Positions 26,442-27,081 of a stretch of DNA of 64,000 nucleotides are shown here, piece after piece; the first letter of the stretch is position 1; the number at the start of each line of letters is the position of its first letter. This DNA comes from Escherichia coli (GTDB taxonomy: Bacteria > Pseudomonadota > Gammaproteobacteria > Enterobacterales > Enterobacteriaceae). The notes beneath the pieces were generated by a model that was not told the origin of the DNA, did not search any database, and saw only the letters and a program-made list of their open reading frames with translations. The stretch lies in NCBI RefSeq assembly GCF_017348835.2, contig NZ_CP071375.1. The stretch is one strand, 5' to 3'. The position numbers and the translations under genes were made by a program.

Positions 26442-27081
26442 AATGCTACGTATCCTTGAAATAAATATCCTCTGGCAGCGCCGGAGACGTGAATGTGGTC
26501 ACCGCAAAGGAGCCACAGGACGTCATTTGCGCTGATATAACTACTCATCGTTGACTTTTTCCCTGGGCAGAAATGCCGTGTCGGGTCTGGTACATGCTGT
26601 ATTACGGCCCAGGTAGCTCTGACGTATTAAAGAAAATACGAGAGCGAACGACCCGGAAATAATCGTTATTAAGCAAAGGAATAACTATAAGAAATCGCTC
26701 ATGCATCCGGTGCTACAGGCGGATGAAACGCCACTACAGTTACTGAGTAGTCTGAAACGCCTATTGTGTGGGCTATGTCAGTGCGGCAGGTTGCGTGGGG
26801 GAATATGTTCAGGCGATGTCAGGCAGGTGCCCCTGATGGTTGACCGGTAATGCGGGGCTGGTTTTTATTACCTGTCGCAGTCGGAAGAAGCCCTTACGCT
26901 GACTTTCTTGAGCCGGTGTTTTGAGTTCATTAGCCAGAGCCTGCAATGGTTTGTCATCCATAATTTAACCTTCTTCTGATGTTGGGATGAGCATATCAAA
27001 ATCAGGAAATGACAAGTTTATATACAGGCTCAGGCTGCGTTCAGCAAAGCATCGCAACCGGCGATAGATGCTGCATTAAAT

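Follow-up and report, generated by a model that had tools for sequence, protein, structure and literature searches.

Locus and gene content

What occupies the 640 bp that separate the start of the LRR gene from cvrA on this E. coli chromosome, and did a mobile element bring the LRR gene there? The interval (positions 26442..27081) was analysed within a stretch of 64,000 nucleotides, here called the window, in which the gene order is dadA-dadX (to 23525), LRR gene, 640-bp interval, cvrA, ldcA and emtA. The features surrounding the interval are as follows.

23692..26441, minus strand: LRR gene, with its start at 26441
24600..25909, plus strand: intact IS3-family (IS629-like) element splitting the LRR gene, with 25-nt inverted repeats, orfA/orfB and a 3-bp duplication, TAC
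23692..24599 and 25910..26441, minus strand: LRR gene fragments left by the IS629-like insertion
27082..28818, minus strand: cvrA, with its stop codon at 27082

The IS629-like element shares 94% identity with the IS that an O157-like genome carries at this locus. In strain PE164 the 640-bp interval is 100% identical to that of the window, and the LRR gene is intact, encoding 478 aa. Protein searches recovered the LRR protein from E. coli and Shigella only, and a contig scan for relatives of the locus in other species returned a single E. coli-like contig, mislabelled as a Collinsella MAG. The protein is highly polymorphic (75-96% aa identity; 437-480 aa) and carries acidic 4-residue repeats. 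Its LRRs exhibit 30-35% identity to those of Salmonella NEL, IpaH and YopM, the NEL domain itself being absent; one source names the protein a type III effector (LRR).

The original prediction that no full-length ORF lies between the LRR start and cvrA was borne out, the longest ORFs being 49-50 aa. Its description of the interval as a scar is also apt, since deletions specific to particular alleles abound in it. We conclude that the gap is an ordinary genomic scar, in which an IS256-family relic lies beside a non-repeated spacer.

An IS256-family relic beside cvrA

The minus strand of 26844..27031 holds an immobile, internally deleted relic of an IS256-family element of the IS1414 group, a reading to which we assign a probability of roughly 0.9. 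Its left inverted repeat is directed towards cvrA, 50 bp past the stop codon of that gene, and its transposase gene reads towards the LRR gene. The surviving parts comprise the left inverted repeat, the 5' UTR with its ribosome-binding site, the start codon, 12 codons and out-of-frame patches extending to approximately codon 103. From cvrA inwards, the parts are assigned as follows.

27032..27081, no strand: 50-bp spacer by cvrA (AGGCTGCGTTCAGC...CATTAAAT), between the relic tip and the cvrA stop codon
27005..27031, minus strand: terminal inverted repeat at the left end of the relic (IRL), reading GAGCCTGTATATAAACTTGTCATTTCC
26926..27004, minus strand: IS 5' UTR, ribosome-binding site (GAAGAAGGTTAAATT), transposase ATG (26961..26959) and codons 1-12 (MDDKPLQALANE)
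26844..26925, minus strand: patchy, frame-broken transposase gene fragments, from the block alignment

The evidence is strongest at the DNA level. When the 640 bp were compared by blastn with 72,556 plasmids, 802 records matched window positions 26924..27031 and nothing else in the interval, the best at 86.4% identity (E=5e-27). These matches begin at the IS terminus (query position 51, which is window position 27031), and the matched features, where annotated, are IS256-family or IS1414 transposases. Elements of the IS256 family annotated by PGAP in E. coli start at the same GAGCCTG. Pairwise blastn against IS1414 gave 82% identity over 109-111 nt (E=2e-26; window 26924..27031), with a second collinear block at 26844..26869 (84.6%). 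Direct reading shows that the IRL tip (GAGCCTGT), the ribosome-binding site and the peptide MD(D/E)K.LQALANEL are common to the relic and IS1414, the termini of which are GAGCCTGTACATAGATTTGTGTAATTGCC (IRL) and GAGCCTGTTTAAGATTCTGTGTAAATGCC (reverse complement of the IRR). The relic is 12-18% divergent from every IS copy found.

Alignment in blocks places IS nt 1-108 at 27031..26926, with 79 of the 89 positions between IS nt 20 and 108 (27014..26926) identical. Further in, IS nt 121-127, 154-173 and 322-377 are retained, down to 26844, and the deletions between the retained blocks amount to approximately 12, 26 and 148 nt; past 26844 the block alignment found no reliable IS match. The window allele carries an extra 8+1-bp deletion within the 26844..26925 patches.

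Having lost both its DDE catalytic domain and its right end, the relic makes no transposase and cannot be mobilised. Local alignment for a right inverted repeat found no IRR-like sequence, the best candidates being no better than shuffles or uncorroborated, as is to be expected of a truncated element. An extension of the relic to the C-terminus and IRR was considered, in that nt 1220-1252 of a plasmid IS aligned with approximately 26683..26710 at a score of 27 (shuffle maximum, 23). It was left as noise, the same alignment being absent with IS1414 itself and finding no protein-profile support. A target-site duplication of 8-9 bp is a property of the IS256 family; only one IS end survives here. 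In the 50-bp spacer a small hairpin at 27059..27073 is at chance level, and some 3,500 K-12-type genomes share only the last 57 bp of the 640-bp interval.

The claim that this is the decayed edge of a mobile element thus holds as to the presence of a decayed remnant, but the family, strand and ORF had been misassigned: the remnant reads as IS256, on the minus strand and in the minus-strand ORF. The inverted-repeat ends that were to be looked for nearby are represented by the IS256-family IRL at 27005..27031, with neither a right end nor a partner on the dadX side.

That the element delivered the LRR gene, as had been proposed, is unsupported, because there is a single IS end, its tip does not lie at an indel edge, and no partner IS end or bracketing inverted repeat was found on the dadX side. 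The tip, 50 bp from cvrA, falls within sequence missing from a common allele (strain Ecol_732) in which the dadX-cvrA spacer is just a 56-bp hairpin (CGCTGGATGCGACCAGCGTCGTATCCAGCG), with neither the LRR gene nor the IS relic. Inverted repeats bracketing the LRR gene were sought and only weak chance pairs were seen.

The minus-strand ORF

A minus-strand ORF of about 50 codons had been noted in the interval, and it is present with a length of 50 aa.

26809..26961, minus strand: 50-codon pseudo-ORF, in which a transposase start is fused to out-of-frame leftovers, reading MDDKPLQALANELKTPAQESQRKGFF... / MDDKPLQALANELKTPAQ...

Judged by its alignments, this ORF is a transposase remnant of the IS256 family, a gene start that runs into frame-shifted debris. 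As a tblastn query against the plasmids it gave repeated weak matches in IS256/IS1414 transposase genes. In the reverse direction, the IS1414 transposase matched the ORF with E=3e-5 in the window allele and 1e-5 in a second allele (98218). The N-terminus of the IS1414 transposase is MDEKQLQALANEL / MDEKQLQALANELAKNLKTPEDL, and the relic reads MDDKPLQALANEL...; a later stretch in allele 98218 reads FFRLQQVKKNQPRITGI, versus FEPQLVKKNQTRITGM in IS1414. In a search of every six-frame piece from three alleles with a profile built from 87 IS1414-like transposases, only pieces of the minus-strand ORF matched (E=2.6e-5, 2e-3 and 7e-3). The profile positions covered by the relic, 1-46 and 82-103, are N-terminal only.

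The protein-level signal is too short for significance against whole databases. The Mutator-type DDE transposase (PF00872 / NF033543; approximately 400 aa) had no Pfam or NCBIfam match in the interval, and the NCBIfam IS256 model begins only at residue 43. No transposase appeared among the matches of the ORF in Pfam, NCBIfam or a search of 5.8 billion proteins; its sole relatives in the latter database are E. coli copies of the same locus.

Could the ORF instead be a genuine small-protein gene? It keeps the ribosome-binding site and ATG of the IS, it is annotated in several genomes (PGAP calls it a hypothetical protein in PE164), and the equivalent IS1414 start drives YmgM in K-12 (PMC6001520). 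Yet its length is 26, 50 or 53 aa depending on the allele, each version with its own C-terminus, it has no homologues outside the dadX-cvrA locus, and the out-of-frame joining of transposase fragments accounts for its whole sequence. We consider a gene here very unlikely, and the ORF is treated below as transposase debris.

The plus-strand ORF and the IS66 family

On the opposite strand, the frame with an ADETP motif described in the original prediction does exist.

26701..26850, plus strand: 49-codon ORF with the motif ADETPLQLL, reading MHPVLQADETPLQLLSSLKRLLCGL... / MHPVLQADETPLQLLSSLKR..., with ..KKSL in frame before it

The frame at 26701..26760 had been taken for a decayed IS66-family transposase, retaining the motif of the first catalytic Asp and left behind by the element that delivered the LRR gene. 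The resemblance to the motif is real: 9-17 residues of the ORF resemble the first-catalytic-Asp motif (hADdTPvkvL) of the IS66 family (ISSfl4 of pCP301; ISEc8-like). ADETP is also rare by chance: mononucleotide shuffles predict 0.035 occurrences across the six reading frames of the 64-kb window, which contains one, although the motif was chosen after the fact. A profile assembled from 41 diverse IS66 transposases and searched against 135 short peptides ranked the piece first, aligning LMHPVLQADETPLQLLS with positions 248-264 (laseklhaDdtpvkvLd). The match is confined to 17 residues, with 2.9 bits and E=0.26, and does not reach the conserved GKTKTGRLWxYxRD block that comes next in real IS66 transposases.

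The remaining evidence runs against an IS66 origin. Neither Pfam nor NCBIfam gave a match to DDE_Tnp_IS66 / NF033517 at E<=10 for any ORF of the interval. A verified transposase, ORF3 of ISSfl4 from pCP301 (NF033517, E=7e-101), served as the query, and permissive tblastn of this protein against the interval produced no alignment across the motif. No IS66 DNA or protein match was obtained by blastn or tblastn among the 72,556 plasmids, and the pieces scanned include no ORF resembling the IS66 accessory genes tnpA or tnpB. Inverted repeats bracketing an IS66 element were not found; the only convincing pair within 23400..27200 belongs to the IS3-family element. Comparison of alleles is also unfavourable. 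Half of the motif (LQLLSSL) falls in a 29-bp segment, flanked by GGCGTTTCA direct repeats, that other alleles lack. Elsewhere among the alleles the ORF measures 95 aa or 37/78 aa or is lost altogether, and in the 159-bp deletion allele the whole region of the plus-strand ORF is gone. The interval therefore differs from an IS66 element in lacking significant profile, pairwise or DNA similarity, tnpA/tnpB and inverted repeats, and an IS66 remnant is highly improbable. We conclude that the plus-strand ORF is a chance reading frame, partly antisense to the IS256-family relic, and not a transposase fragment.

The spacer next to the LRR gene

Beyond the inner limit of the relic, the rest of the interval is single-copy DNA.

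26442..26843, no strand: single-copy spacer (402 bp), present in 837 of 5426 E. coli genomes, once in each, with no paralogues

The spacer had no match among the 72,556 plasmids. The 290 bp closest to the LRR gene (26442..~26733) are 97-100% conserved among alleles, while the LRR coding DNA of the same alleles is about 84-95% identical; the part distal to the LRR gene is rich in indels. This conservation suggests that the LRR-proximal ~290 bp are probably the 5' region of the LRR gene, that is, its 5' UTR and promoter.

It may be asked whether the entire interval is the LRR regulatory region, promoter and 5' UTR together, the IS similarity being incidental to its function. The single-copy state would fit, as would the conservation of the 290 bp when set against the 84-92% seen in the N-terminal coding DNA of the LRR gene; moreover, the transposase of the relic reads in the same direction as the LRR gene, such that read-through is conceivable. 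On the other hand, no minus-strand sigma-70-like promoter rises above chance, and promoter and terminator signals in general are at chance level. The Rfam search of the interval gave no family at E<=1, and the fold z-score of -1.3 shows no RNA-structure signal. Furthermore, 170 bp of the conserved LRR-proximal part are missing from one allele whose LRR gene is intact, and the proposal leaves the IS-derived sequence at 26844..27031 unexplained. A regulatory role for the whole interval is possible but doubtful; an IS256-family relic next to a spacer of which the LRR-proximal part is probably regulatory remains the preferred description.

Across the population, 26442..27031 has lost segments between short direct repeats in several independent events, that of 8+1 bp in the window allele among them. 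That of 29 bp lies between the GGCGTTTCA repeats mentioned above, and that of 170 bp between CCTTTGC repeats; the 159-bp deletion is found in roughly 130 genomes.

Comparison with IS1414 and ymgM of strain K-12

In the MG1655 record of E. coli K-12, the 102 bp at 1240188..1240289, within the same dadX-cvrA spacer, are listed as "insertion sequence:IS1414 (partial)". This copy and IS1414 itself share with the window relic the tip of the terminal repeat (GAGCCTGT), the 5' UTR, the ribosome-binding site and the transposase start. The K-12 copy nevertheless lies in the opposite orientation, and it is identical to a living plasmid IS at 100 of 102 positions as against 86 of 102 to the window relic, whose identity is 84-86% both with living copies and with the K-12 relic. 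The window relic reaches deeper into the transposase gene (patches to approximately codon 103) and adjoins the LRR gene, which K-12 has lost. Unlike IS1414, it lacks a DDE domain and a right end, and no target duplication can be recognised.

The K-12 relic adjoins the LRR gene's final 71 nt and is itself followed by the same cvrA-side spacer sequence. Its inner junction falls within CAGGCTC, a sequence identical to the reverse-complemented tip of the old relic. From this arrangement we surmise that a second, younger IS would have inserted into the 3' end of the LRR gene in the opposite orientation, and that a deletion between the short direct repeats CAGGCTC(N)GGCT may then have removed the body of the new IS, the LRR gene and the old relic. 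None of the 5426 genomes preserves such an intermediate, in which the IS at the 3' junction of the LRR gene would still be intact.

The K-12 gene ymgM (b4740, 67 aa), listed as a small protein (PMC6001520), begins with the ATG and first codons of the IS1414 transposase (MDDKQLQA); the 5' end of an IS can therefore donate expression signals. In the window the ymgM frame is without an IS1414-derived ATG because the relic is inverted there, and the IS start heads a different frame of 50 aa instead. The ymgM frame, which is antisense to the 3' end of cvrA, is itself conserved in the window (27022..27210, plus strand), and in PE164 PGAP calls a 62-aa ORF in this frame with a non-canonical ATA start.

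By analogy with YmgM, the start signals of the window relic could still work. They would yield a strain-specific 50-aa peptide, or drive transcription of the LRR (putative type III effector-like) gene, which lies 520 bp downstream in the same orientation, or both. We regard this as unlikely. If it were true, the dadX-cvrA spacer would be a site where the 5' ends of IS256-family elements have twice seeded new expression units.

Loss of the LRR gene and annotation of the spacer

O157-like genomes have lost 23808..26966 beside an IS629. Three lineages thus show IS-associated loss of the LRR gene, which has therefore been inactivated repeatedly: by the IS629-like insertion in the window, by an IS629-linked deletion in O157-like genomes and by an IS1414-like-linked deletion in K-12. 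The locus illustrates how an accessory, effector-like gene is eroded in E. coli lineages through IS insertions and short-repeat deletions, and how, as in K-12, the 5' end of an IS becomes the start of a new small ORF. Its significance beyond annotation is small. "Hypothetical protein" calls in the spacer should become "IS256-family element, partial", as the K-12 record already does for its own copy.

The plasmid collection contains records that look like assembly or labelling artefacts, that is, chromosomal records filed as plasmids. "Plasmid" p1RM9154-C1 (NZ_CP031350.1) carries the chromosomal segment from dadA to fadR (fadR-dadA-dadX-cvrA-ldcA) and is uninformative as a plasmid copy, and two 4.9-Mb records in the same collection have chromosomal content.
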